The notes under the pieces: generated by a model
The model's input: the letters and a program-made list of their open reading frames with translations, nothing else
The model's database searches: none
Told to the model about the DNA's origin: nothing
Source of the DNA: a plasmid
DNA: 64,000 nt
Assembly (NCBI RefSeq): GCF_054482595.1
Contig: NZ_JBTHVH010000001.1
Reading direction: 5' to 3' (one strand)
Shown: positions 23,433 to 62,100 of the stretch, piece after piece
How the letters are laid out: each line of letters opens with the position of its first letter
Numbering within the stretch: position 1 is the stretch's first letter
Position numbers and translations under genes: made by a program

Positions 23433-23476
23433 TGATTTTTATGCGCAGCTGGACGTAAACTCCTCTTCGGATCTAA

Positions 23477-23510
23477 TAACTTCGTATAGCATACATTATA
23501 CGAAGTTATA
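23477..23510 (+). other. loxP: loxP recombination site
   Basis: Exact ATAACTTCGTATAGCATACATTATACGAAGTTAT. Confidence 0.97.
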
Positions 23511-23927: not shown

Positions 23928-24959
23928 ATGTCCAATTTACTGACCGTACACCAAAATTTGCCTGCATTACCGGTCGATGCAACGAGTGATGAGGTTCGCA
24001 AGAACCTGATGGACATGTTCAGGGATCGCCAGGCGTTTTCTGAGCATACCTGGAAAATGCTTCTGTCCGTTTGCCGGTCGTGGGCGGCATGGTGCAAGTT
24101 GAATAACCGGAAATGGTTTCCCGCAGAACCTGAAGATGTTCGCGATTATCTTCTATATCTTCAGGCGCGCGGTCTGGCAGTAAAAACTATCCAGCAACAT
24201 TTGGGCCAGCTAAACATGCTTCATCGTCGGTCCGGGCTGCCACGACCAAGTGACAGCAATGCTGTTTCACTGGTTATGCGGCGGATCCGAAAAGAAAACG
24301 TTGATGCCGGTGAACGTGCAAAACAGGCTCTAGCGTTCGAACGCACTGATTTCGACCAGGTTCGTTCACTCATGGAAAATAGCGATCGCTGCCAGGATAT
24401 ACGTAATCTGGCATTTCTGGGGATTGCTTATAACACCCTGTTACGTATAGCCGAAATTGCCAGGATCAGGGTTAAAGATATCTCACGTACTGACGGTGGG
24501 AGAATGTTAATCCATATTGGCAGAACGAAAACGCTGGTTAGCACCGCAGGTGTAGAGAAGGCACTTAGCCTGGGGGTAACTAAACTAGTCGAGCGATGGA
24601 TTTCTGTCTCTGGTGTGGCTGATGATCCGAATAACTACTTGTTTTGCCGTGTCAGAAAAAATGGCGTAGCTGCGCCATCTGCCACCAGCCAGCTATCAAC
24701 TCGCGCCCTGGAAGGGATTTTTGAAGCAACTCATCGATTGATTTACGGCGCTAAGGATGACTCTGGTCAGAGATACCTGGCCTGGTCTGGACACAGTGCC
24801 CGTGTCGGAGCCGCGCGAGATATGGCCCGCGCCGGAGTTTCAATACCGGAGATCATGCAAGCTGGTGGCTGGACCAACGTAAATATTGTCATGAACTATA
24901 TCCGTAACCTGGATAGTGAAACAGGGGCAATGGTGCGCCTGCTGGAAGATGGCGATTAG
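23928..24959 (+). CDS. cre: Cre site-specific tyrosine recombinase
   Basis: 343 aa; matches the well-known Cre sequence (MSNLLTVHQNLPALPVDATSDEVRKNLMDMF...MVRLLEDGD). Confidence 0.97.
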   Translation: MSNLLTVHQNLPALPVDATSDEVRKNLMDMFRDRQAFSEHTWKMLLSVCRSWAAWCKLNNRKWFPAEPEDVRDYLLYLQARGLAVKTIQQHLGQLNMLHRRSGLPRPSDSNAVSLVMRRIRKENVDAGERAKQALAFERTDFDQVRSLMENSDRCQDIRNLAFLGIAYNTLLRIAEIARIRVKDISRTDGGRMLIHIGRTKTLVSTAGVEKALSLGVTKLVERWISVSGVADDPNNYLFCRVRKNGVAAPSATSQLSTRALEGIFEATHRLIYGAKDDSGQRYLAWSGHSARVGAARDMARAGVSIPEIMQAGGWTNVNIVMNYIRNLDSETGAMVRLLEDGD

Positions 24960-29814: not shown

Positions 29815-32800
29815 TTATGCGTATTGTTGGATGACGGCCAGAACGTCCGCCACGTTGTGTTTTGTCTCGATAATCCACCAGTTACCCGGGAAATCGCTGT
29901 TCTTTGCCTTCGCTGGCAGCCAGCGAGCGCCGAATTTCGCCTTGATTGCGTCTTTCGCACGGAAAAGAATGCCTTTCATGCCGGACGCCTCCTGAAGCCC
30001 AAATACCTCGCCAGCGGCGAATTTTGGTGCGTACATCATCTTCAGGTCGGCGGTGGATACGCGATAATTCAGACCAAGAGACTGAGCTATGCTGGTGGCA
30101 TCACCCTGTATTGATGATAACTCTTCTTGTTTCTCGTTTCTGGCGGCAATTTCTTCCTCCGTGATGTTGCCAAGGGCCAGGTTTATCCGATCAGCGTCGG
30201 CCTGTTTCTCTTCATCGGTGCGCCCGGCAAGAACCGTGTTAATTCTCTGCAATATCTCCACATGATTCTTGCGCATGCTGAGCAATTCCGGCGTAACCTC
30301 GTTAAGATCCACCAGCCCAAGGATGGCAAGGTCGGAAAACATTGATACCAGGTTGTAGGTCATGCGATAGCTGAGTTGGCCATAGGCTGATGGCAACTGC
30401 ACCGCATCCATTTTATAGGCATCCATAAATTTAGAGCCGTCGTTTACGACATCCGCAATTGCCGGTGTGATTTTCCCTGTGGTGGCGGCCTCCCTGATTG
30501 CTGTTACCCACGATTGAGTCAGTGCGGCGACTGCATGATTCAGATTGGCTTCCCGTTCTGCTGCGATGCGCGCGCTTGCTGCGTCCATTGCCTGCTTGAT
30601 CTCGGCTTTATTGCTGTAAATGCCAATGGTGCCAAACTGTGCTGTGGTGATCTCATAATCTGACGCCCGGAACTCATGGGTACCGAAAATGGCATTGGTG
30701 ACCTCAAGTTCAGAATCCCCGTTACGAGTAGCCCCCTGGCTTGTTTTCTCCGGCATTCTGGCGATCGCATCCGCTATTTTCTCCTGAATTGCTTCAGGGG
30801 ATAGCGTATCTCCATATGACGCGATTACATCGCCATAATTGGAGCCAAACAGTTCAGTCAGGAATACTTCTGCCAAACGGACCTGGCGGTTATTCCCTTC
30901 AGACATCATACCAAGCACCCATTTTGCAATTGACGACTTCAGCGCGCCGTCACGGCGATCCGGGTAAACCGCATGCTTCAGTGGGTCCGTATAGGTACCA
31001 ACAAAATCAATGCTATAGCCTGACTCTGTAGTCTGAACGCCGTATGAGTCAGTGATTTTGATCATGCCGCGCTGCTGGAAACGGTAGAAATCGTCACAGG
31101 AAATGATGTCGTTAATCCCGGCGATGGAGACGCCACCACTGATTTTCTGCATAACAGCATCTTCATCGGGAGTTACATCCACCTGTTTATCCAGCGTCTT
31201 CACATCCCAGTTACCCGATTTGGTGCCTCTTAAGGTAAAGATGATCTCCACGTCTGCGCGCTGGCTGTCGAAGTCCAGCGACTTAATGCGAACGATATCA
31301 CCGGCACAATCGTAGTATTGGCCTACACGCCATGAGCGATCGCCGATAACAAGGAACTCATTCGCATGGTTAACCAGATCAGGATCAACATCCAGAATGC
31401 CTTTATTTATTGCATCCTCCACCAGCGGGCGCAGGCGTTTGATATCCGTCGCGGCCTTCTGAGTACGGTTCAATAATTTCTCATAGCGGGAGATGGCCTG
31501 AGAGATATTAGCCTTGCGCTGAATGGCGCTTTTCAACGACGCGCGATACTGTGCTAACAACATACGGTCTGTGTGATGGACACTCCCCCAGCGGGCCTTC
31601 CAGTCTGCGTTATCCGCTGCCTTGGCCATTGCCGCCTGTTTGAATTTAGCTACCTCGGCGGTGGTCTTTTCAAGTTCCGCTTTGCTTCGCTCTAATTCAG
31701 CGGTAAGTACCTCCACATCCTCGCCAGCTGCGTGCTGCGCCTTGATGTAGTTCTGAAGGTCGATAGTAGCCTGTTCTTTCTGGCGAGCGCGTTTCGCAGC
31801 TTTCGCCTTATCCATTTGAACCTGCATCATTGCCAGACGTTCGCCGTCATCCTTCGCGGTATACATCTGCATTTCGATCATGTCATTGGCGTCGGCGTTC
31901 TCCATTTCTGACTTATCTGAACGGAGGATATCGGAGATCCAGCCTGCTTTACGCTTCAGCGTCTTCAGTCGGTATTCATCGAAAGACCCCTTGCCGCAGT
32001 AGTAGTGAACGCGAACGCTTGCACGGTTGGAACCAACTCGGGCACCGCGACCGTTACGCTGTGCGATACTGGCTGGTGTCCACGGCAACGTCAGGTGGTG
32101 GATATCCGTCGTTCCTCGATGCAGGTTGATACCCACCTCTGCCTTTTTGTTGCAGATGATGATCGGAGTCCGGCCCTCCTGGAAGTCGGCTGCAATCTTT
32201 TCCAGACCGCCCAACGACATTTCATTTTGCTGCGCGATATAGGCGTCATACAGAGCCATTTGCTCGTTGTATTTCGCTATCTGTGCATCTGTTGGTTCAT
32301 CCGGTAGCTCTTTCGGCGGTTTAACCGCTTTCAGTTTCTTACCGGTTTTACCTGCCTCGGCAACCGTCTGAGCATTCAGGATCCCCACCTTTGAAGGTTC
32401 AAGGTTTAGAGCATTGCAGATAATGCGCTTGAGCTTCTGGTGCTGCGTTTTTTCATCGGTGAAGATGATTTGCTTACCTTCCGGGAAAAACTCCTTCAGC
32501 GTGGCGATCAGCTTCGCGTATTTCGGCGTAACGGGGTGAGTTACGGTCTGTTCGTCAATGCCAAACCTGGCCAGGCGCTTATTCACTTCCTGCTCGAACG
32601 CTTCCGGAACCTGCAACTGAATAAACTCGCCCTTATCTATCAGGGAGTATTGCGATTGCTGCGTGATTGAATCATCACTGTCGTCGTCTTCGCTGGTGGC
32701 TTGTTTAGGCAAACTGTCCGCCAGCTGCTGCACCGCATCGGCGTACTCCGGCAGGAAACGATAGGTGATCCGGCGATAGTACAGGTCCATGTCAGTACAT

Positions 32801-41883: not shown

Positions 41884-42080
41884 TAAAAACCCCGTCAGTT
41901 GGCGGGGAACTCCACGTCAAATGGCCAATTGTTATGTCAGCTAGCAGTTAAAGCGCCTAGTCATCATCTTTTAAAGAAGTCTTTTTAACTTACCTAAATT
42001 AGTGACACCTCCCGTTTTGCTTGCTATTGTACGCATTCATGAATCTATTCATTAATCTATTCACAATAGTAATTAAAACT

Positions 42081-43385
42081 ATGGCTATACATGCAACAAC
42101 AATCCGTAATTTGCTCAATCAAGGTCCTATGACACCAAGACAATTGGTTGAAAGACTAGGTGTTAGCCAACCAACGATATCTAGAGCATTAAGAGATCTT
42201 GGTGATGAAATCGTTAGGATCGGAAATGGAAGATCTATTCAATATGCTTTACGAGACTCTTTTAGAGGATTCGAATCAGTCCCCATTTATCGTATAACTG
42301 AAGAGGGGTGTATTTGCGTTCTTGGTACTCTCATTCCGGTGAGGCCAGAAGGCTATGTTATGGTTGAGGAAGGGAAAAATAACAGGCATAGCGATGGGTT
42401 ACCTTGGTGGTTATTTGATATGCGTCCACAAGGCTTCCTTGGAAGAGCATATGCATCAGCATATGCTCTTGAACTTAACCTTCCCTCAAATCCAGAGCAA
42501 TGGTCAGATACTGACGTGATCAAAGCCTTACTTAAGCATGGGCATGATGTTGTTGGTAATTTGTTAATTGGAGAGCAAGCACGCACGCATTTTTTAGAGA
42601 TGCAGCCTCCTGTTCCTGTTAATCGTGAAAGTGAATATCCTGTATTAGCTTTAGCTGCTGGTGAAGGTGATGTGCCCGGTTCATCTGCTGGAGGTGAACA
42701 ACCCAAATTTTGTACTTTCACAGAGCGTGGACATGTATTAGTGAAATTCTCTGCGCCTAACGACACCCCTATAAGTGAGCGTTGGAGAGATCTCTTGTTT
42801 GCTGAACATCTCGCATTAAAAGTTCTGGGGGTAGAAACAGAAGTTTTTGATTATAACGGTCAGAGATTCTTGGAAATTCCCCGATTTGATCGTGTTGGTC
42901 AACTAGGTCGGGTAGGTGTATTCTCACTTCGTGCACTTGATGCAGAATTTGTTGGGAATGCAAGAGCAACATGGCCCTTGCTGGTTAAAGAGTTGGTAAA
43001 AAATAAGTGCGTCCATCCTGATGCGATTATTATAGCAACAAGGCTATGGTCTTTTGGTTTGCTAATAGGCAATACCGATATGCATAATGGTAACCTATCG
43101 TTTATTAGTAGCCACGGACGCCCATATCATATTGCTCCAGCCTATGACATGTTACCTATGGGTTTTGCTCCACGCTCTGGGGGAGCAATATCTAATGAGC
43201 TTAGAAAAACAGCACTACCAGACTTTGTAAGTCGAAAAATATGGGATGAATCTCTTGAATTGGCTGAAAAATTTTATGCATTGGCCTGTGAGTCCGACAA
43301 ATTCTCAGCTAACTTTACTCCATGTTTAGAAGCGCTACGCATCCACCTAGATGATTGTAAGATACGCATAGCCCGCCTGGCATAA
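42081..43385 (+). CDS. HipA-family Ser/Thr kinase with fused N-terminal HTH (YjjJ/HipH-like)
   Basis: HTH PRQLVERLGVSQPTISRALRDLG; kinase motifs GNTDMHNGNLSF and APAYDM; start uncertain (TTG 42021 or ATG 42081). Confidence 0.7.
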   Translation: MAIHATTIRNLLNQGPMTPRQLVERLGVSQPTISRALRDLGDEIVRIGNGRSIQYALRDSFRGFESVPIYRITEEGCICVLGTLIPVRPEGYVMVEEGKNNRHSDGLPWWLFDMRPQGFLGRAYASAYALELNLPSNPEQWSDTDVIKALLKHGHDVVGNLLIGEQARTHFLEMQPPVPVNRESEYPVLALAAGEGDVPGSSAGGEQPKFCTFTERGHVLVKFSAPNDTPISERWRDLLFAEHLALKVLGVETEVFDYNGQRFLEIPRFDRVGQLGRVGVFSLRALDAEFVGNARATWPLLVKELVKNKCVHPDAIIIATRLWSFGLLIGNTDMHNGNLSFISSHGRPYHIAPAYDMLPMGFAPRSGGAISNELRKTALPDFVSRKIWDESLELAEKFYALACESDKFSANFTPCLEALRIHLDDCKIRIARLA

Positions 43386-48997: not shown

Positions 48998-49609
48998 TTA
49001 ATTTCCTGCTTTCAGTTGCTTAAGACGACGTTTGAGTTCGCCATTCCGTGCCTTTTCGTTATTGAGTCGGCCCGTCTCCTTATCCAGCTTCGCCCGCAAA
49101 TCAGTGATCTGCTGTTGATTGAAAGACACCGAATTCTGCGCGGACTTATAAGCGGCAACCACCTGAGCATTCCGCTGTTTTGCTTCTTGCAGGCGCTGAA
49201 AGTTGGATTTAACTGCCGGTTTCTTGTCTACCGGATTGGCAACACGCTTCGCTTTGGCGATCAGTGATTTCTGGAATTTTGCGGAGTTTTTGCGGGCCGC
49301 CTGTCCCATGACGGTACCAAGCGTCTTGATATCCGGCGACTGAGCGTTAGGAATAGCTTTTCCATTCAGTTTCACAGACGATATATCGCCAGTATCGTTT
49401 ACCTGTATGGCAAGAATTTGTCCGTCGTTAAGAACCAGCTTTGCGGTTTTAACTTTAACGCCATCTTTCGTTGTTGCGCGGTTGCTGGAGTCAACCTCAA
49501 TTACCGTAACACCGGTTTTATTGATCGCCGCGATAAGGGATTTCAGCCCCTTTTCATTAACCTGGTCAAAATCGACCGTTGCATACTTATTTTTCGTCAT
49601 CTGACACAT
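48998..49609 (-). CDS. hdf: Hdf (203 aa)
   Basis: Position upstream of darA. Confidence 0.5.
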   Translation of the reverse strand: MCQMTKNKYATVDFDQVNEKGLKSLIAAINKTGVTVIEVDSSNRATTKDGVKVKTAKLVLNDGQILAIQVNDTGDISSVKLNGKAIPNAQSPDIKTLGTVMGQAARKNSAKFQKSLIAKAKRVANPVDKKPAVKSNFQRLQEAKQRNAQVVAAYKSAQNSVSFNQQQITDLRAKLDKETGRLNNEKARNGELKRRLKQLKAGN

Positions 49610-50030
49610 CCTGTGCGAGATTTATTACGTAACTTCTGCGGATTTGCTGAGTAACAGGGAAAATCCGATACAACGGGTTAATGAACGAGTCGCCATGCGT
49701 AACCATGATGTTGAAATGCCACAGTCGCTCTCCTTTACCCATATATTCAGTGGGTATGTACAACCATTCACTGTTTTCGCCCTGTTCAGCCGACGTCAGA
49801 CAACGTTGTTCACCTTCAATCACTGTCGTCGGCTTCTGAACATCGCGGATCCAATATCTGACCGTTGCGCCGCGCAAAAACGGGAATTTAGACCGGTACT
49901 TGAACGGCACCCGGATGAAACCCGGTTTAATTTCCACATCACCAAGTTCTAAATGCGTGATGTCCTTGCGTTTTAGCAAATAGCGATCGGCTAAGGCTAA
50001 CGCAAGAACGCATACACCCCAGCCAATCAT
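49587..50030 (-). CDS. lydB: LydB
   Basis: 147 aa after holin. Confidence 0.5.
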   Translation of the reverse strand: MIGWGVCVLALALADRYLLKRKDITHLELGDVEIKPGFIRVPFKYRSKFPFLRGATVRYWIRDVQKPTTVIEGEQRCLTSAEQGENSEWLYIPTEYMGKGERLWHFNIMVTHGDSFINPLYRIFPVTQQIRRSYVINLAQDVSDDEK

Positions 50031-50356
50031 TTCCCGCCTCCCTTTTTCACCAAACTTGTAAGAACATTCAGAATGCTATCGATATTCACTCGTTTCATCC
50101 CTGAAATCACCTCATGACCGTTATTGCTGGCTATCGTTACCATTAAGTACGTAATTGATAACTCCCAGCCCTCGTGTTGCCCCAATAGGTACGCCACCGC
50201 GCCAGCTGTCACTGCAACAAAGATCTCCGTAACCAATCCCAACAAATTGCCAGACTGGCGACCGTCTCGGACATCCATCAGGAACGTGCCTATCCCACCA
50301 ATTACTGAAAGCAGGAGCGCAATAGCAACTGGAGCTAATTCCTGTGTGTCAAGCAC
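50027..50356 (-). CDS. lydA: LydA holin
   Basis: 109 aa with hydrophobic helices. Confidence 0.6.
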   Translation of the reverse strand: MLDTQELAPVAIALLLSVIGGIGTFLMDVRDGRQSGNLLGLVTEIFVAVTAGAVAYLLGQHEGWELSITYLMVTIASNNGHEVISGMKRVNIDSILNVLTSLVKKGGGK

Positions 50357-50423
50357 AAGTTCCCTCCTACGTTGTCAGGAGGTAATGGTATGCAAAGTAA
50401 CTTCTCAACCGGTCATTTGTTGC

Positions 50424-50705
50424 TTAAGAGGCATTTCTATTGAGGTACGAATCGATAATCCTTTGTAACTTTTCAAGAATGAGCCTGTTATTGATGCTGC
50501 AAATAATAGTCACGCAATTCTGAAGACTTTCATCCATACCCTTATATTCCGCGAAATACATGCCTATAAAGCCTGCAAGTACGGCAGCAATACACTCGGC
50601 CATCAATTGCCTGTATGACGCTTCGTAACGTTTTTCACGAACCCCATTCAGAAACGAATGCACCCCGCCAAGGATGGAGAGGAGCATTATTGTGAAATCA
50701 CACAT
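50424..50705 (-). CDS. LydC-like holin-family membrane protein
   Basis: 93 aa, hydrophobic helices. Confidence 0.4.
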   Translation of the reverse strand: MCDFTIMLLSILGGVHSFLNGVREKRYEASYRQLMAECIAAVLAGFIGMYFAEYKGMDESLQNCVTIICSINNRLILEKLQRIIDSYLNRNAS

Positions 50706-50832
50706 AACTATTTCCTTAATAGTGAATTAAATATCATTGGGAAACGGTATGTACTTTGTGATTTCCACACATACTGGTTTTTGTTAATTAAAATCCGCAG
50801 CTTGCTATAAATAACGATAGTGAGCAGAAAAT

Positions 50833-50967
50833 ATGCTAATAGGCTATGTACGCGTATCAACAAATGAACAAAACACTGCTTTACAACGAAACGCTCTTGA
50901 AAGCGCAGGATGTGAGCTAATTTTTGAGGACAAGGCGAGTGGAAAAAAGGCTGAACGACCAGAGTGA
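50833..50967 (+). pseudogene. cin: cin remnant: first 44 codons of a Cin/Hin-family serine invertase, then stop
   Basis: [44 protein letters not shown] then TGA; resolvase-family N-terminus with catalytic Ser. Confidence 0.6.
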
Positions 50968-51140
50968 AAAAGGCTTTTGATAGGTAAACTCTGGTCGTAT
51001 GAAAGTTAAATTTGCGTGGGTGCAGCATGCGCTCACTCTTGAGGCATGAACGGTAATCATCTGATAACTTGTAGCTCGATTATCCGGACGCACTGGAACC
51101 AGTCGATGCTTCCAGCGATCCAGATATTTCATTAAATGGA

Positions 51141-51551
51141 CTACGCCTCCGGGAACGCTGGCCAATTGACATCTGGTGCAGTGCTGGTATCCGTTGCGGT
51201 CACCGCATCGATATAATCCAGCACAGCGTTAAGACGGGTGGTTTCAGCCTGCGTAAGATTCCGCCCGGCCTGTAATTTCAGTTGAATAAGACTAATGGAA
51301 GCCATTGCGGTATCAATCAGCGACTGTTTTTTCTGTTCAGCGTCAGCTACCAGTTCATCATGAGAACGTTCCGGAGTGGGTGGCGCAGTAAATCCCCCGT
51401 CTGAATACACCCAGCCGATTCCGGGCTGCTCACTGATATCAGAAATATTAATGAGCTGCTGATTATCCGGCACTGTGAATTCAGCCTCGCCATCCCAGAC
51501 AATGACATTCACAACCATCCCATTTTCAATAACTGCATATGATGTATTCAT
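51141..51551 (-). CDS. tail fibre assembly/chaperone protein (U-like)
   Basis: ATG at 51551 overlaps S stop (TAATG); ends ...NWPAFPEA. Confidence 0.6.
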   Translation of the reverse strand: MNTSYAVIENGMVVNVIVWDGEAEFTVPDNQQLINISDISEQPGIGWVYSDGGFTAPPTPERSHDELVADAEQKKQSLIDTAMASISLIQLKLQAGRNLTQAETTRLNAVLDYIDAVTATDTSTAPDVNWPAFPEA

Positions 51552-54500
51552 TATGCAAACTCCTCGATAATACAAATCCCTGCAGCGCCTTTCCCGCCCG
51601 TCATACTGGTTCCGCTATAACCGGCATCGTATGCACCACCGCCGCCCGAACCATATGCCCGACCGATAACGCCACCGCCAGCGCCTGCGCGACCACCGCC
51701 CCCCCAGAACGATGATCCTCCTTCACCACTGACGCTGATATTTCCGGACTGACCGTCACCTCCATGCCCACCAATAATGCGGACATCACCAGTATTCGGC
51801 GCGCCTCCATTACCACCGTTCGTGTTTGTGACTCCTACTTTCCCGCCGCCTTCACCGCCAGGGGCTATTACCGTTCCGAACGAGCTATCACCGCCCTTGA
51901 GGCCGTTCGTCGCACCAACACCGCCGCCCCCACCTGCGCCGATAGTGACTGGATAACTATTCTGTGTCGGGGTCATTATTGAAATTATTGTCCCACCGGC
52001 CCCACCGCCAGCACCGAAAAACGTCTCGTTATTGGATGTAGCCTGGCAGCCACCACCTCCGCCACCGCCGCCCGTAATTGTGACCCTGATTCGTTTTGTT
52101 CCTGGCGTCGGGGTATACGTACCTGATGAAGTGAAAACCCGGGTATTCACCAAACGCCCAACATATCCGCTTGAATCGCTCAGGCCAAGGTTAGCAGCAG
52201 TTAAAGTAATATTTGCAGAACCATCAAACTTAACACCGTTGATAGTGCGTGCAGTCTGTAGTTTCGTTGCGGTTGCGGCATTACCGGTAGTGCTCTGATT
52301 ACCTGCTTTATTCACGCCCGGCAGGTCGATATTGGCACTACCATCGAATGACACTCCGCCTATTGTGCGTGCTGTTTGCAGTTTTGTTGCAGTTGCAGCA
52401 TTGCCGGTAGTGCTCTGATTACCTGTTTTATTCACGCCCGGCAGGTCGATATTGGCACTACCATCAAATGACACCCCGCCGATTGTGCGTACTGTTTGCA
52501 GTTTCGTAGCGGTTGCAGCATTGCCGTTCAAACTACCATTGATGCCGCCAGTAACATTGAGTCCATTACCGATCGTAACAGTACCATTGGCATTGTTAAT
52601 GATAAGCGGCCTTAAATTATTATAGGTTCCCAGGCTGTTACCCGAATTGGTCAACATGAAATATGTGTTTGAACCATCGTTTCGGATAAAGAATCCGTAG
52701 TTTCCGTAGGCAATGCGCAGACCATTCGCCGATTTTGAAATGATCTCACCAGTAGCCGTTAAACCGCCGTTGAGATTTCCTCCGGTTATTGGTAATGCGC
52801 CGACATCCGTGGCGGTCGGTTTAATGTGCGAACTGTAAATTACATATACAGTTCCATCTGTCAGGCCTGTTGGTTTATTCGCTGTATAAGATGGTGATGT
52901 ATGAATCGTTACGCTGGCGTTACTGGTATAATCCCACTGAATATTAACACGTGTGGTGTAATTACCTATTTCAACATAAACATCATAGGTATCACCGGAT
53001 GTATTCACCCATGCAAAATTAGTAAATCCAACCGATGTCCGTCGCCATAACGCACCAGTAAGACCTTTTGGATTCCCATTTCCCGCACGAAGAACAAGTT
53101 CAGATATACCAGCCTGCATAGGGGAGTTAACATTATATCCAGAACCACCAATCAGGCTTATGTAAACCACGGAACTGGACTGTGGCATGGTTACAGTTGC
53201 CAGCTTGAACCATCCAGTACCACCACTAAAAGACATTGTTGTTGAGTTGATCGTGCCTATAGACCTTGGAGTTAGCTCAATGTTTTTAGAACCGTCAAAC
53301 AACACCCCATTTATAGTTCTAGCGGTTTGTAACTTGGTCGCTGTCGCTGCATTACCGGATGTATTCTGATTACCCGCAACGTTAACACCAGGTAAATTAA
53401 TATTCGCAGTACCATCAAAGCTAACTCCGCCGATAGTTCTTGCCGTCTGTAGTTTTGTAGCAGTTGCCGCATTGCCAGTTGTATTCTGATTGCCAGTGGC
53501 ATTCACACCAGGAATGGAGTCCCTTGATGTATATACCTGCGCCCACGCTGACCATGCCGCATCAGTGTGATCTCTTCGGGAGCGAATGAAAACCGGCGCA
53601 TGTGCACCGCTCGTACCACTCCAGCCAATAAGCAACTCGCCCTCACCAGCAGCACTCGCACCTTTCATGTGCAATACGTTGCCATACGCGGTCGGGTAGC
53701 TATTGTTGTACGCCTCATACATCTGCAATCCAGTAGAAGCACCTTGTGTTGTATCGGTGAGCGCAGTAACACGCCCTCTGGACGCAATTGTTGGTATCGA
53801 AATGTTCGCAGAACCATCAAACTTAACACCGTTGATTGTGCGTGCTGTTTGCAGTTTTGTTGCAGTTGCGGCATTACCGGTAGTGCTCTGATTACCTGCT
53901 TTATTCACGCCCGGCAGGTCGATATTGGCACTACCATCAAATGACACCCCGCCGATTGTGCGTACTGTTTGCAGTTTCGTAGCGGTTGCAGCATTGCCGG
54001 TAGTGCTCTGATTACCTGCTTTATTCACGCCCGGCAGGTCGATATTGGCACTACCATCGAACGACACTCCGCCGATTGTGCGTGCTGTTTGCAGTTTTGT
54101 GGCGGTGGATGCATTACCTGTCAAAGATCCACTAAGAGCCACGGCACTAAGAGACTTAACACTTACATCCTGACCCCATCCGGAAACAACAACCTGACTC
54201 CACGCTGTCCAGTTTCCATTAACAACAAAGCGAACGTATATACGTTTTGTGTCGCTGTTAATCAGCGTTTGCATGTTCGCATAATCTGATCCCGTAGTCT
54301 TACGAATCGACTCTACACGAACCAAAAAGTTACCGCTTACGCCGTCAGGCTTATTGGTAATATTTGCACCACCTGCGACAGTTTTGCATTGATAGTATTT
54401 AACGGATCCAGCTTCTGTATTAGCAATAATCAAGTCGTTTAAATCAATAGCCCGGCCGTCAATGGCTTCCGGCTCGATGGCTCCTGCTATCCCGGCACTG

Positions 54501-55978
54501 AATGTAGCAGCGGCTGAAAACGCTGTCTTACCTTTGAAAGTCTGTTGAGAACTCCAGGTATTAGCTGTGCTCAACAGGGGGATCTTTTCGCCGCTGGTTC
54601 CGATTTCTCTTAAACCAAGGTATTGGATAACAGCCAGTGTGCTTGTTTTAGCCAGGATATCGCGACCGACTGACGTTAAATCAGTCTGGGAAACAGTGTC
54701 TGTACCGGTAAAGTACGGCAATTTATTTGCGCCTGTCGCAAGACCAGCAAGCGCGGTTAAAGTTGCATCCAGAGGCTGTTTGCCTGCCAGCGCATTTGTC
54801 ATTGTTGTCGCAAAGTTCGGGTCATTGCCCAGTGCTGCTGCAAGCTCATTCAGGGTATCAAGAGCTTCAGGTGATGAGCCGACCAATGCAGAGATAGCAG
54901 CTCTTACATAAGCGGTCGTAGCAATCTGCGTGTTATTCGTACCCTGTGCAGCGGTAGGCGCAGTAGGTATTCCCGTTAATGCAGGACTTGCTAAAGGAGC
55001 TTTAAGAGCCAGAGCATTGTTGATAGTTGTGCTGAAATTCGGGTCGTTATTGATCGCAGCAGCTATTTCTTTAAGCGTATCCAGTGTGCCAGGTGCACCG
55101 TTGATAAGTGCCGTTACAGCTGCCTTAACAAAGGCTGTATTTGCGATCTGCGTGCTGTTTGTACCTTGCGCTGCCGTCGGCGCGGTTGGCGTTCCTGTCA
55201 GACTCGGGCTTTCTATTGGCGCTTTGGTATCAGCCAGCTCTTTTACAGACTTAACGGCTTTAGGGGTAGCCGCCATTGTTTCGCTGTCGCTGTTAGTTGC
55301 GCTACTGAGCTGAACTAATCCCTTTTGTGTTGTGCTTGCATCCTGCGCCGTATACTTGCTTTTAGCCAGATCGTAGGCTTTTTTAACCGCCAGCGAACTT
55401 GCAGCGACATCACTTCTGGTACTGGTTACAGAGTCGGAAATTTCAATGCCTATCGCGAGATCGATGCGGTCGGATACATCTATCATTTCCTTAGTAATAG
55501 CAGATACGCCAGCAGGGATATTCACCGTACAAACAAGCAGTTCCCCATCTCCTAACTGATATGAATCGGTATAGGTTCTGGCAACAAATTCAGCCGCATG
55601 AATATGTGACGCGGTATTAACCTGATAAGAATCTTCTCCAAGGAGGTATCTTCCCTTCAGCACAATTGCATATTTCTTACCTGCGCTAAGTGCAAGAGAA
55701 ATATCCTTACGCTGCTGAATAGTTACCTGGTAGAATTCACCAATATTCACTGACGCCGCGCCAGCGGTTTTATCACCATCCACTGAGGTGATTAACAGGT
55801 TCATCCCACCGCCAGGCTTAGGAAAAAAACCGGCATAAAATCCAGGGTCAACAATTCCCCTGAATTTTCGGTTTAGCGCGGCTGACAGATATGGTTCGTG
55901 GTATTGCACATCAGCCACCAGAGCCAACGACTCGGGTGATGGGTAAGTAACCGATGTGACAACTGTAACGTCATTCAT
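51551..55978 (-). CDS. tail fibre protein S (1475 aa) with phage-fibre repeats and glycine-rich C-terminus
   Basis: ATG at 55978 with AAGGA SD (track ORF extends to 56065); about 8 copies of GNAATATKLQTARTIGGVSFDGSANIDLPGVN. Confidence 0.8.
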   Translation of the reverse strand: MNDVTVVTSVTYPSPESLALVADVQYHEPYLSAALNRKFRGIVDPGFYAGFFPKPGGGMNLLITSVDGDKTAGAASVNIGEFYQVTIQQRKDISLALSAGKKYAIVLKGRYLLGEDSYQVNTASHIHAAEFVARTYTDSYQLGDGELLVCTVNIPAGVSAITKEMIDVSDRIDLAIGIEISDSVTSTRSDVAASSLAVKKAYDLAKSKYTAQDASTTQKGLVQLSSATNSDSETMAATPKAVKSVKELADTKAPIESPSLTGTPTAPTAAQGTNSTQIANTAFVKAAVTALINGAPGTLDTLKEIAAAINNDPNFSTTINNALALKAPLASPALTGIPTAPTAAQGTNNTQIATTAYVRAAISALVGSSPEALDTLNELAAALGNDPNFATTMTNALAGKQPLDATLTALAGLATGANKLPYFTGTDTVSQTDLTSVGRDILAKTSTLAVIQYLGLREIGTSGEKIPLLSTANTWSSQQTFKGKTAFSAAATFSAGIAGAIEPEAIDGRAIDLNDLIIANTEAGSVKYYQCKTVAGGANITNKPDGVSGNFLVRVESIRKTTGSDYANMQTLINSDTKRIYVRFVVNGNWTAWSQVVVSGWGQDVSVKSLSAVALSGSLTGNASTATKLQTARTIGGVSFDGSANIDLPGVNKAGNQSTTGNAATATKLQTVRTIGGVSFDGSANIDLPGVNKAGNQSTTGNAATATKLQTARTINGVKFDGSANISIPTIASRGRVTALTDTTQGASTGLQMYEAYNNSYPTAYGNVLHMKGASAAGEGELLIGWSGTSGAHAPVFIRSRRDHTDAAWSAWAQVYTSRDSIPGVNATGNQNTTGNAATATKLQTARTIGGVSFDGTANINLPGVNVAGNQNTSGNAATATKLQTARTINGVLFDGSKNIELTPRSIGTINSTTMSFSGGTGWFKLATVTMPQSSSVVYISLIGGSGYNVNSPMQAGISELVLRAGNGNPKGLTGALWRRTSVGFTNFAWVNTSGDTYDVYVEIGNYTTRVNIQWDYTSNASVTIHTSPSYTANKPTGLTDGTVYVIYSSHIKPTATDVGALPITGGNLNGGLTATGEIISKSANGLRIAYGNYGFFIRNDGSNTYFMLTNSGNSLGTYNNLRPLIINNANGTVTIGNGLNVTGGINGSLNGNAATATKLQTVRTIGGVSFDGSANIDLPGVNKTGNQSTTGNAATATKLQTARTIGGVSFDGSANIDLPGVNKAGNQSTTGNAATATKLQTARTINGVKFDGSANITLTAANLGLSDSSGYVGRLVNTRVFTSSGTYTPTPGTKRIRVTITGGGGGGGGCQATSNNETFFGAGGGAGGTIISIMTPTQNSYPVTIGAGGGGGVGATNGLKGGDSSFGTVIAPGGEGGGKVGVTNTNGGNGGAPNTGDVRIIGGHGGDGQSGNISVSGEGGSSFWGGGGRAGAGGGVIGRAYGSGGGGAYDAGYSGTSMTGGKGAAGICIIEEFA
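52170..54130. repeat. three clusters of tandem about 129-bp coding repeats inside S (52180-52560, 53280-53520, 53800-54120)
   Basis: Near-identical DNA blocks read directly. Confidence 0.6.
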
Positions 55979-55989
55979 CAAGCATATCC

Positions 55990-56424
55990 TTATGCTGTAG
56001 TCGTGTTTATGGCCATAACTGCGGTATATGTTTTGCCCACATACAGCGAGTCTTCCTGGACACAAATAATGGCGATTGGCTTGTTCTCGTTATCCAGAAC
56101 AACCAGAGTGTTGAATGGGTAGTTTTTCCCTTTCTGCAACTGGCTTTGATCAAGGTCCATTCGGACAGTAATTATCCCGCCTGAGTAGGTTGGGACGAGG
56201 TTGATGGTGCAAAATTTACTGGTCAGTTCTGCCAGATCGAAAGCCTTTGGCAGTTCTCCAATCTCATAAGTGCCATCTCCTTTCTTAGTAACCAGTGAAC
56301 TGGTACCGAAAACGGCCTTGCTGATTAAAAATCGAGAGCCTTTGTTAATGGACGATTCAGCGCGCCGCTGATAGTAATAGTCCAACAACTGACTCTTATA
56401 GAGGTTTGTTGAGACGTCAGACAT
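55990..56424 (-). CDS. R-like tail protein (144 aa)
   Basis: Position upstream of S. Confidence 0.45.
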   Translation of the reverse strand: MSDVSTNLYKSQLLDYYYQRRAESSINKGSRFLISKAVFGTSSLVTKKGDGTYEIGELPKAFDLAELTSKFCTINLVPTYSGGIITVRMDLDQSQLQKGKNYPFNTLVVLDNENKPIAIICVQEDSLYVGKTYTAVMAINTTTA

Positions 56425-59128: not shown

Positions 59129-62100
59129 TCAACTCTCGCGTAGTCATTCATCAACGGATCATCAATTGACAGTGGTACCGTGCGCATAACGCCCGGCTGA
59201 GGCGTGCTGACCTTTACGACAGTTCCCTGGCCTTTCGCCGAGTCTTTGGTGTGCTCTTCAATCCTGGCAAGCAATGAGGTCATCTGCGCAAACAGCCGCT
59301 TCGTTTCACCATCAAGTGAAACGGTATTATCAGCCAACTGCATTGTCGGCTTGGCACCGGAACCGCCAAGGTCACTAATAACCTGCCCGTCTATCTGCAT
59401 ACGACCGGTTGGTTGCTGCAAATCGTTGGCGGCAGTCGTCACCTTGGACGTGGAGGCTGGTTCAGGCGCATTATTTTTCCGCATCCCCGGCGAGTTGCGG
59501 AGTTTATCGAATAGTCCATCAATCCCCATTTGTGCGCCGAGTTGGTCAAAGTAACTTGAGTTGCTGGCCACCGGACGCGCCTCTTCAACTGGCATCGGAA
59601 TATCAACATACACATTGCCAGCTGCTGTTGCGGTCCCCTTCCCTCGTGCACGTTCTTCGAGCGTTCCCTGAACGACTTCCCGACGCATACCCCGGCCATT
59701 CATGAATTTGTTGACCAGATCGTTAACGCCAACAGCATTGCCGATTTTGTCTACCAGACCGCCTTTCTCAAACGGGCTATCACCAGGGGTAAACGCCAGG
59801 CCAGTAGACTGATCGATAACAGCGTTATCAGGCAGTGGTCCCCTCACTCCATATTGCGCCCCACCCTGTGCTCCTGCTCCAGGTGTATAGATTTCACCAC
59901 CTAAATAGCGAGCACGATGAGTATTGACCTTGATCGCGTACTCACGGTTTTCTTTCGATAAGTCACCTGTGCCTTTTTTCCACTTATTGATAGTGCCAAA
60001 CCCAGCGTTATATGCAGTGATGGCCTCGTTTAAGTCTCCATTGGCTTGCTTCAGATACTTGCTCATGAGAAGAGCCGCAGCTTCTGCCGATTTCACAGGA
60101 TCAAACGATTCACCTTCAGCTAAGCCAGTCTCTTCACGAGCAATCCCCGTGAACTGAAACATTCCCAGAGCACCGGTTTGGGATTTTGCATACGGATTAC
60201 CACCAGATTCAGTTGCAGCAATCGCGTAAAGAGTGCCTTCTGGAAGACCATATTTATTCTCTAGTTCAGCAAAATACGGAGCCAACTTATCGAGATTTGC
60301 CTTACCTTCAGATCCAAGACTTCCGACTTTTACATCCAAGCGGCCATTGTTGTAGGTATCCGCAGCTTTCTGAATGTCACTCCTGGTGCCAGTGGTATTA
60401 AGCGACGATGATGACGAGCTATTTTGACCAATAGCTTTATCAATTTTCTGCAACGCGCTATTGCCCGTTTCTACGGCATTTGCATTGATAATCTGATTCG
60501 CAGTTTCTTTAACTGTTTTATTGCTATCTTTCGCCGTGTCCAGTGCCGCATTTATCACGCGGGTAACAATATTAGTCTGTTTGGCATCGGATTCAGTTTT
60601 AGAATCAGATGTCTCCTGGTGGCTATTAACCGGAGCTTTTAACTCTGGAGTGATTTCTTTGGCATTAGCCTCGCTATTAACCGGAGCTTTTAACTGTGGA
60701 GCGATTTCTTTCGCATTAGCCTCGCTATTAACCGGAGCTTTTAACTCTGGAGTGATTTCTTTCGCATTAGCCTCGCCGATCGGATTGGGTATTTTTGATA
60801 CAATCATTGCCGCAGGGGTATTTTTAACGGCATCAACCGCTGCATCTAATGCTTTACCAGGTAAATTTTTAACCCCATCCCAAATATTACCAGCCGCCTC
60901 TTTAATGTGTTTCCCTGGGTTCTTAATGAAATCAATTGCACTATCAATTGCATCACTGAAAACCTGTTTCAGGTTATCAACAGTAAAGAAGTCTTTGATG
61001 GCATCCAGCTTTTCAAGCAGCTTATTAGATGTATCGCTAAACCATGCTGAAACAGCATCACCAATCTTTGCTGTGTAATCTTCGAACTTGGTAGAAATGG
61101 TGTCGCCAAGGTTAGAAATATATGTTTCTAAGTTGGTAATCCCACTATCAATGGCCTGGGCAATACTTTCCGTCGAAAATGATTGCAACATATTGCCGAT
61201 ATCCTCAAATCCAAGTGATTTGAGAACCTCACCAATGGCGCTGCTAATACCAGATACCAGTCCCCCCATATCAAGAACATTGGCTAACGTATAAGCGGCT
61301 TTTTGCTGGAATGATGGATCTTGTCCTGATTTAAGCCCAAACGCTCGACGTTGCGCTTCTGTATCATTCCAACCGGTTACCGCATCATAAATACCTCCAG
61401 CCACTGTGCCGACTAAGGGAATTGCGCGTAACGCCCCTTTACCAACTGCCTTTAATCCAAGTTTACCTGCTGCCCGGGCAGCCAAATCTCCACCTTCATG
61501 GGCGATAGTCTTCTTGCCACCACCGCGTAGCATTCCTACAAGTTTCTTTGCCCCCAGAGCGCCAAAAGCGAGTGCTCCAGCTTTTTTCAGCATGCCACGC
61601 CCCATTAACAACGACGCGACGCCACCGGCCCCCTTCCCTAACAGGCTAAATAGTTTGGACAGCAAGCCGCCCTTCTTTTTCCCGGTGTTTTTGGCTATCT
61701 GATCAAGGGCGCTGAGAATCTTGTCATTGCCCTCTTTAATTTCGCTGGTCTGCTCCTGAAGTTCCTGAACTGTCCGTTTTTGGGTGTTAACCTGAACGAC
61801 ATCGGCACTATTTTGCGATTTACGCCTAAAAAAACCTTTTCTACGGCTGTTATCGTCATTGCCACGAATCACATCGGCAATAGACTTTCTGGCACCATTA
61901 AGCGATCCACCAACTTCTTTTGATATCCCGCCAAGCTCCTTCCCTGCTGCCCACAATGGACCAGCAACGGCATAACCTAACGCATCAACGGCACGAGTCT
62001 CTGAAGGGTTACCTATGCCTTCAGCTACTTTTGACAGTTTTTTTAATAAACCTGATTCAGCATTTAGACGCTCATCATCCTCTTTACGCCTGGCCTTTTC

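Follow-up and report, generated by a model that had tools for sequence, protein, structure and literature searches.

We asked whether a P1-like plasmid prophage that carries only the beginning of the invertase gene cin can still switch its tail fibres. The initial annotation of this DNA had described cin as reduced to 44 codons and had considered the tail-fibre inversion system lost and the host range fixed in one state. The DNA analysed here, called the window, is one stretch of 64 kb (64,000 nucleotides), and all coordinates refer to it unless another record is named.

The locus lies in a P1-like plasmid prophage

Sequence comparison identified the setting of the region as a P1-like plasmid prophage. 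Window positions 49500-52500 are 100% identical to the E. coli plasmid pEC258-2 (NZ_CP097097.1; window position = plasmid coordinate + 38394). The locus is the same as the one that in phage P1 (NC_005856) contains cin (31660-32220), cixL, Sv', U', U, Sv and cixR, and the genes follow in the same order, lydB-lydA-lydC, then cin, and further on U, S and R. On the left flank, hdf/odaE, lydB, lydA, lydC and the cin promoters are 99% identical to P1 (48673-50971, megablast), and the limit of P1 homology moved to 51037 when a sensitive blastn search was used. P1 homology is back at 54531 and runs (to 58000) through Sc, R, gene 16 and the baseplate genes. Plasmid pYLMB49b is colinear with the window over 12 kb (99.96% identity), and an apparent insertion of ~1.5 kb in relatives (3 pieces over 4474 bp) was set aside as an artefact of the internal repeats of S.

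Other features of the window lie apart from this locus. A perfect 13-8-13 inverted repeat at 23476-23509 (ATAACTTCGTATA...TATACGAAGTTAT) is loxP, and near it a 343-aa ORF (23928-24959) is found at the expected place of cre. A HipA-family toxin annotated as YjjJ (42021-43385, plus strand; pEC258-2 3687-4991) is non-P1 cargo between ssb and a ddrB/prt-like gene. At 5036-5101, nested perfect inverted repeats, one of 13 bp (5036-5048 and 5089-5101) around one of 11 bp (5061-5071 and 5078-5088), form a 66-bp compound palindrome.

cin is reduced to a decayed remnant

The following features make up the cin part of the locus:

50711-50794, plus strand: P2cin and P1cin promoter elements, 27/27 and 33/33 identical to the annotated promoters of P1 (NC_005856)
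50833-51037, plus strand: cin pseudogene (Δcin), 205 bp corresponding to cin nt 1-217 (codons 1 to ~73)
50833-50967, plus strand: residual 44-codon ORF, Cin residues 1-44 including the catalytic-serine region VRVST, ending with TGA at 50965-50967
50851-50922, no strand: orphan Fis-dependent recombinational enhancer in the 5' end of cin, 72/72 identical to the P1 annotation

The 44-codon invertase N-terminus with its stop codon was borne out by translation and by homology: the peptide is identical to P1 Cin across residues 1-43/44 (tblastn), aligns with the Gin structures 4m6f and 3uj3 over residues 1-43 and matches DNA-invertase families of PHROG. The statement that cin is reduced to 44 codons is nevertheless true of the ORF only, as the DNA derived from cin extends over 205 bp and carries several lesions. 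An alignment to P1 cin and the C-segment had been proposed initially as a check. It places the remnant at cin nt 1-217 with an internal deletion and two stops, and comparison with the intact cin genes of P1, P7, JL22, pSBF45b, pGZM7b and pE166_1 gives the lesions as L45* (TTA>TGA), an 11-12-nt deletion causing a frameshift, W61* (TGG>TGA) and several clustered substitutions. A second fragment of Cin, 'TLVV*KLNLRGCSMRSLL', is found in another frame at 50988-51041 (tblastn).

What does the remnant still hold of an invertase? The N-terminal motif of serine invertases with the catalytic serine (VRVST...) is present. The complete catalytic domain (residues ~1-100) and the helix-E dimer/tetramer interface are absent, with homology stopping at cin nt 217 (codon ~73) and with two stops and the frameshift preceding this point. 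For the C-terminal helix-turn-helix domain, tblastn found no match to Cin residues 75-186 in the window or in pEC258-2 1-50000. Over the first 107 nt of cin, identity to P1 is 100%, falling to about 80% in the remainder (blastn and alignments); the full identity of this first part, which includes the enhancer, could be due to recent recombination or to constraint. Two ORFs on the minus strand, of 106 aa (50708-51028) and 82 aa (50917-51165), were taken as antisense artefacts of the cin 5' end and of the U' stub described below.

A deletion joins cin to the 3' end of U'

Downstream of Δcin lie:

51038-51170 (about 105-133 bp), plus strand: U' stub (ΔU'), about 35-42 codons from the 3' end of a convergent tail-fibre assembly gene, in decayed form
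51141-51551, minus strand: U-like tail-fibre assembly (chaperone) gene, intact, 136 aa, its start overlapping the S stop (TAATG)

The distance from the 44-codon ORF to the stop of the U-like gene (51141), initially given as about 170 bp, was measured as 173 bp. This spacer is made up of the rest of Δcin and the U' stub, with the actual junction of the deletion at about 51037/51038. The stub aligns clearly to the C-terminus of pro483 ORF32 (...NLWLDYLDALELVDTSSAPDIEWPTPP) over 51064-51170, the 26 nt at 51038-51063 lying outside this alignment, and it carries an in-frame stop (TGG>TAG) and a 5-nt insertion. Its 3' end overlaps that of U by 30 nt, as in the convergent tfa pair of phage pro483. 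From 51087 on, the window aligns to the U'-U intergenic region of plasmid pSBF45b and then to its U gene.

Compared with an intact system, the window is missing cin nt 218-561, cixL, Sv' and most of U'. The absence of alternative Sv'/U' genes noted at the outset thus holds: of a set in opposite orientation there is no Sv', and U' is present only as its decayed 3' end, the last ~40 codons. A Cin-mediated deletion between cix and a quasi-cix site was considered and rejected. The deletion looks illegitimate, because the junction sequences at 51037/51038 contain no cix-like core; any microhomology at the junction is masked by decay on both sides. A scan for canonical terminators or promoters arising at the junction gave nothing above the shuffle expectation.

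The junction is shared by other plasmids and the remnants have decayed further

The same junction is carried by 44 PLSDB plasmids (87-100% identity) and by 72 of 5426 complete E. coli genomes (84-100% over plasmids and genomes together), and by none of the 50,697 phage records of INPHARED. The 5' part of cin is matched in 386 of these genomes; the lineage accordingly makes up about 1.3% of complete E. coli genomes and roughly a fifth of those that match the cin 5' part.

Three relatives, AR437 unnamed1, pVPS18EC0801-3 and RHB43-C19 unnamed3, were aligned in detail. All three share with the window the large deletion, the loss of 11 nt, W61* and the substitutions that form the repeat. Codon 45 is TTA in the relatives, which gives an ORF of 52 codons, and because relatives with the same junction read TTA, the TGA of the window is, on this comparison, a late lesion private to its sub-lineage on an old pseudogene. 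AR437 has a lesion of its own, TAG at codon 17, so that separate carriers show independent nonsense mutations (codon 45 and codon 17). An extra 18-nt deletion in ΔU' is present in all three relatives. The remnants of the window and AR437 are 88-90% identical, compared with 99% for lydA, lydB and U; the remnants thus diverge about 10 times faster than the flanking genes, which fits relaxed constraint. Multiple disabling lesions, a shared junction and independent later lesions are found together here, as in a pseudogene left at a deletion scar.

The same Δcin/ΔU'/U block also occurs in RHB43-C19 unnamed3 (p3, CP099081.1; 4341-4730), whose phage-plasmid backbone is more distant (rep_cluster_1704). 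This plasmid has another replicon type, and the sequence that precedes its cin ATG differs as well. The presence of the block on this different backbone indicates that it moves between backbones by recombination, and the scar appears to have spread horizontally together with the fibre module. Within the first 107 nt of cin the relatives differ from P1 and the window does not; this P1 identity, present in the window but not in the relatives, indicates a recombination boundary inside the remnant.

The inverted repeat in the cin remnant

The remnant contains one further feature:

50955-50965 and 50988-50998, no strand: perfect 11-bp inverted repeat (ACGACCAGAGT/ACTCTGGTCGT), 22 nt between the arms

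The initial annotation had drawn attention to this repeat as flanking the truncation point. The repeat is present and perfect, and it brackets the stop codon and the 11-12-nt deletion, which falls in the spacer between the arms, but the real junction at 51037/51038 lies outside it. On its own the repeat is unremarkable, because the 64-kb window has 8 such perfect repeats in all (11 nt or more, within 60 bp), loxP among them. Its source is an imperfect repeat of intact cin (CGCCCTGGGT...ACCCTGGTCG). All six sampled intact cin alleles read CGCCCTGGG...ACCCTGGTCG, whereas the four remnants all read CGACCAGAG...ACTCTGGTCG; two changes bring the left arm into agreement with the right, and a third is matched by one in the opposite arm. 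No variant with a perfect repeat was found in the intact cin of P1, P7, JL22, pSBF45b, pGZM7b or pE166_1 or in the pro483 invertase.

Could the remnant have been kept for a new function? A minus-strand hairpin at 50955-50998, followed by UCAGCCUUUUUU, might end or insulate the late R-S-U tail-fibre transcript; it would then replace the U/U' bidirectional terminator lost with the deletion, and it may come from quasi-palindrome (template-switch) correction of the imperfect cin repeat. We consider such a function improbable. The predicted RNA hairpin is more stable than expected in the window (z = -3.0) and in AR437 (z = -3.1), with 0/200 shuffles as stable, versus z = +0.14 for the same stretch of intact P1 cin. 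This stability and the base changes that distinguish remnants from intact alleles favour a retained element, as does the fact that 21/22 arm positions are conserved although the remnants of the lineages compared differ by ~10%. The arm conservation is, however, not significant (p about 0.14, an estimate that assumes ~15% divergence), there is no covariation among the remnants themselves, and three of the four changes are synonymous third-position changes, as expected from an unsampled diverged cin allele. A perfect 11-bp repeat is moreover expected about once per 64 kb by chance, and the window has 8. As an intrinsic terminator the hairpin has a stem of 11 bp, but its loop is 22 nt long and the run of T (U in the RNA) begins 6 nt past the stem; the consensus terminator scan made no call. 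A search for known RNA families in 50300-51700 gave none at E <= 1. If the hairpin did have this function, it would help to explain why the stub accompanies the U-Sv module from one P1-like backbone to another. We prefer to read the remnant as part of a deletion scar, and we infer that it is neutral.

An intact fibre gene with a single crossover site

On the other side of the junction, the fibre gene and its crossover site are arranged as follows:

51551-56065, minus strand: S tail-fibre gene, intact, 1504 aa, a single uninterrupted ORF
54618-56065, minus strand: Sc, the constant part of S, 94-96% identical to P1
51551-54617, minus strand: Sv, the non-P1 part of S, with repeated ~40-aa units and a Gly-rich C-terminal domain
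54605-54630, no strand: orphan cixR (TTCTCTTAAACCAAGGTATTGGATAA) at the Sc/Sv joint inside S, 26/26 identical to P1 cixR

The protein of the U-like gene belongs to phrog_188, tail fiber assembly (E = 8e-31), and at the nucleotide level the gene is 94% identical to U of pSBF45b. It is annotated as a complete tail fiber assembly protein in CP063718. The PGAP annotation of NZ_CP020522 (1762-2112, equal to window 51141-51491) lists it as 'tail fiber assembly protein, incomplete, missing N-terminus'. The gene is probably a tfa variant with a short N-terminus and not a pseudogene, since its ORF of 136 aa is uninterrupted and start-coupled to S, and the annotation of CP063718 gives it as complete. 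In S, the ~40-aa unit of Sv occurs in about 8 copies (GNAATATKLQTARTIGGVSFDGSANIDLPGVN...). The gene table of pEC258-2 in PLSDB lists only the C-terminal 561 aa of S, as 'glycine-rich domain-containing protein'.

The crossover point of cixR is at 54617/54618. A search for cix-like sites had been suggested by the initial annotation, and one such site was found, cixR, intact in S; it is alone, however, and inversion is not rescued by it. The scan used cixL, cixR and gixL (up to 8 mismatches of 26) and also hixL as targets, and it gave no second cix-like site in the window or in pEC258-2 1-50000, even at 7-8 mismatches of 26. A hixL-type match at 61201-61226 was rejected, its crossover core being missing. 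A second invertase or other Cin homologue was likewise found neither in the window nor in pEC258-2 1-50000 (together the whole plasmid apart from 2.1 kb at 50001-52166). Thus the enhancer of the P1 C-segment switch is present, but in place of two inverted crossover sites (cixL and cixR) there is only cixR. In all 44 plasmids and 72 genomes that carry the junction, the segment has the same single orientation relative to Sc.

Might the switch work in trans, through an invertase of the host or of a co-resident element (Pin, or Cin of another P1) that acts on the lone cixR with the enhancer and so inverts DNA or swaps Sv cassettes with other elements? We regard this as very unlikely. The perfect identity of both elements to P1 would suit it, but cixR lies inside the coding sequence of S, and coding constraint explains its conservation. 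The plasmid has a single cix-like site over the sequence scanned, and invertases of the Cin family strongly disfavour intermolecular reactions. Host chromosomal invertases such as Pin of e14 are possible, but they would still meet no second site. In addition, the P1/pSBF45b homology boundary at 54531 lies 87 bp inside the segment, away from the crossover point, which points to past module exchange by homologous recombination.

That cin is really full length, and its stop or missing segment an assembly or sequencing error, has next to no probability and is already refuted: the single TTA>TGA could be an error in one record, and nothing else speaks for this beyond the general possibility, but the DNA itself lacks the cin 3' end, cixL, Sv' and U', the junction and the internal lesions recur in complete genomes assembled independently of one another (72) and in PLSDB plasmids (44), and the correction of codon 45, by which a full-length invertase might have been recovered, yields merely the 52-codon ORF of the relatives.

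The tail fibre is very probably fixed

We conclude that an old deletion in the tail-fibre switch of the C-segment very probably left this region as its scar, that inversion is no longer possible and that one fibre is fixed. The anatomy of the locus, the absence of the partner elements and the shared junction are plain from the comparisons above. In the history that we propose, one illegitimate deletion would have fused cin, cut at nt ~217, to the last 40 or so codons of U'. Lost with it would be the 3' two-thirds of cin, which encode the whole DNA-binding domain and most of the catalytic domain, together with cixL, Sv' and the greater part of U'. The promoters and the 5' end of cin with the enhancer would have stayed, as would the U' stub, U and Sc-Sv as expressed genes and, inside S, cixR without its partner. 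That there was a single deletion, of about 2.4 kb, is suggested by analogy with pSBF45b and pro483; the exact ancestor, with the U' type of the window beside the U of the window on a P1 backbone, was not recovered. Both Δcin and ΔU' would later have decayed as pseudogenes.

To invert DNA, an enzyme of this family must have a complete catalytic domain and a DNA-binding domain at its C-terminus, and it acts on a pair of inverted crossover sites. The window provides none of the three, and the fibre is therefore fixed as Sc-Sv with U. Having no invertase and a single crossover site, the phage would undergo no inversion and would always make one fibre (Sc fused to the Sv of the window) with one chaperone (U). 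The original claim of a lost switch and a fixed host-range state agrees with these results, as the invertase is dead, cixL is gone, no second site or invertase was found in the sequence scanned, and S and U are intact. At the level of phenotype, we infer the loss of host-range switching.

Comparison with known systems

How does this locus compare with systems already described? It is an ordinary, widespread and already annotated pseudogene scar, and as such it is already known. On an identical locus in NZ_CP020522, PGAP calls a partial pseudogene, 'recombinase family protein, incomplete, missing C-terminus'. The 44-aa ORF covers positions 1-44 of phrog_8275 ('DNA invertase', a profile of 51 positions; E = 8e-33), but the private TGA makes it 8 codons shorter than the form of 52 codons that is usual in the family. 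Plasmid pSvP1 (NZ_MN510446) carries the same Δcin/ΔU'/U junction (94.6% over query 8-641) and differs by large IS and plasmid insertions. For its 'partial invertase orf', the excerpted text of the pSvP1 report considers that the truncated cin likely impairs the switch (Venturini et al. 2019, Sci Rep 9:18861, PMC6906374); those excerpts describe neither a U' stub nor an orphan cixR, nor how common the junction is.

Relative to the C-segment system of P1, the cin promoters, cin nt 1-107, the enhancer and cixR are identical and Sc is 94-96% identical. In contrast, the window has a decayed cin that stops at nt 217, no cixL or Sv' and only a stub of U', and its Sv and U belong to another, longer module, S having 1504 aa compared with 987 aa in P1 (a CDS of 2964 nt). 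The P1-like plasmid pSBF45b (NZ_CP067234), in which the switch is intact, has the same backbone, and its U and Sv 3' end are 93-94% identical to those of the window. It differs in having its own full-length cin, cixL, Sv' and U', and its U' is of the P1-U type, whereas the stub of the window is of the pro483 type.

These findings matter mainly for annotation and for host-range prediction of P1-like phage-plasmids; the scar opens no new mechanistic question. For a lineage that appears to lack fibre switching and to make one long non-P1 fibre, the transduction range and the use as a delivery vector would not be inferable from P1.

More distant counterparts are P2-like phages such as pro483, the Gin/G segment of Mu and Min of p15B, which share convergent overlapping tfa genes, alternative fibre C-termini and a serine invertase. 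The convergent pair of pro483 aligns to U and ΔU' of the window at 81-84%. The systems of pro483, Mu and p15B are complete, whereas the window has one functional half of a convergent pair. The P1-like plasmid CP098993.1 (3660-6640) has a reversed invertase gene and a pro483-like convergent overlapping tfa pair (Min/p15B-like), a third architecture at the cin-C-segment hotspot. The cin-Sv'-U'-U-S block is a recognised hypervariable region in P1-like phage-plasmids (PMC9603915), and the present results indicate that the hotspot evolves by module replacement and deletion.
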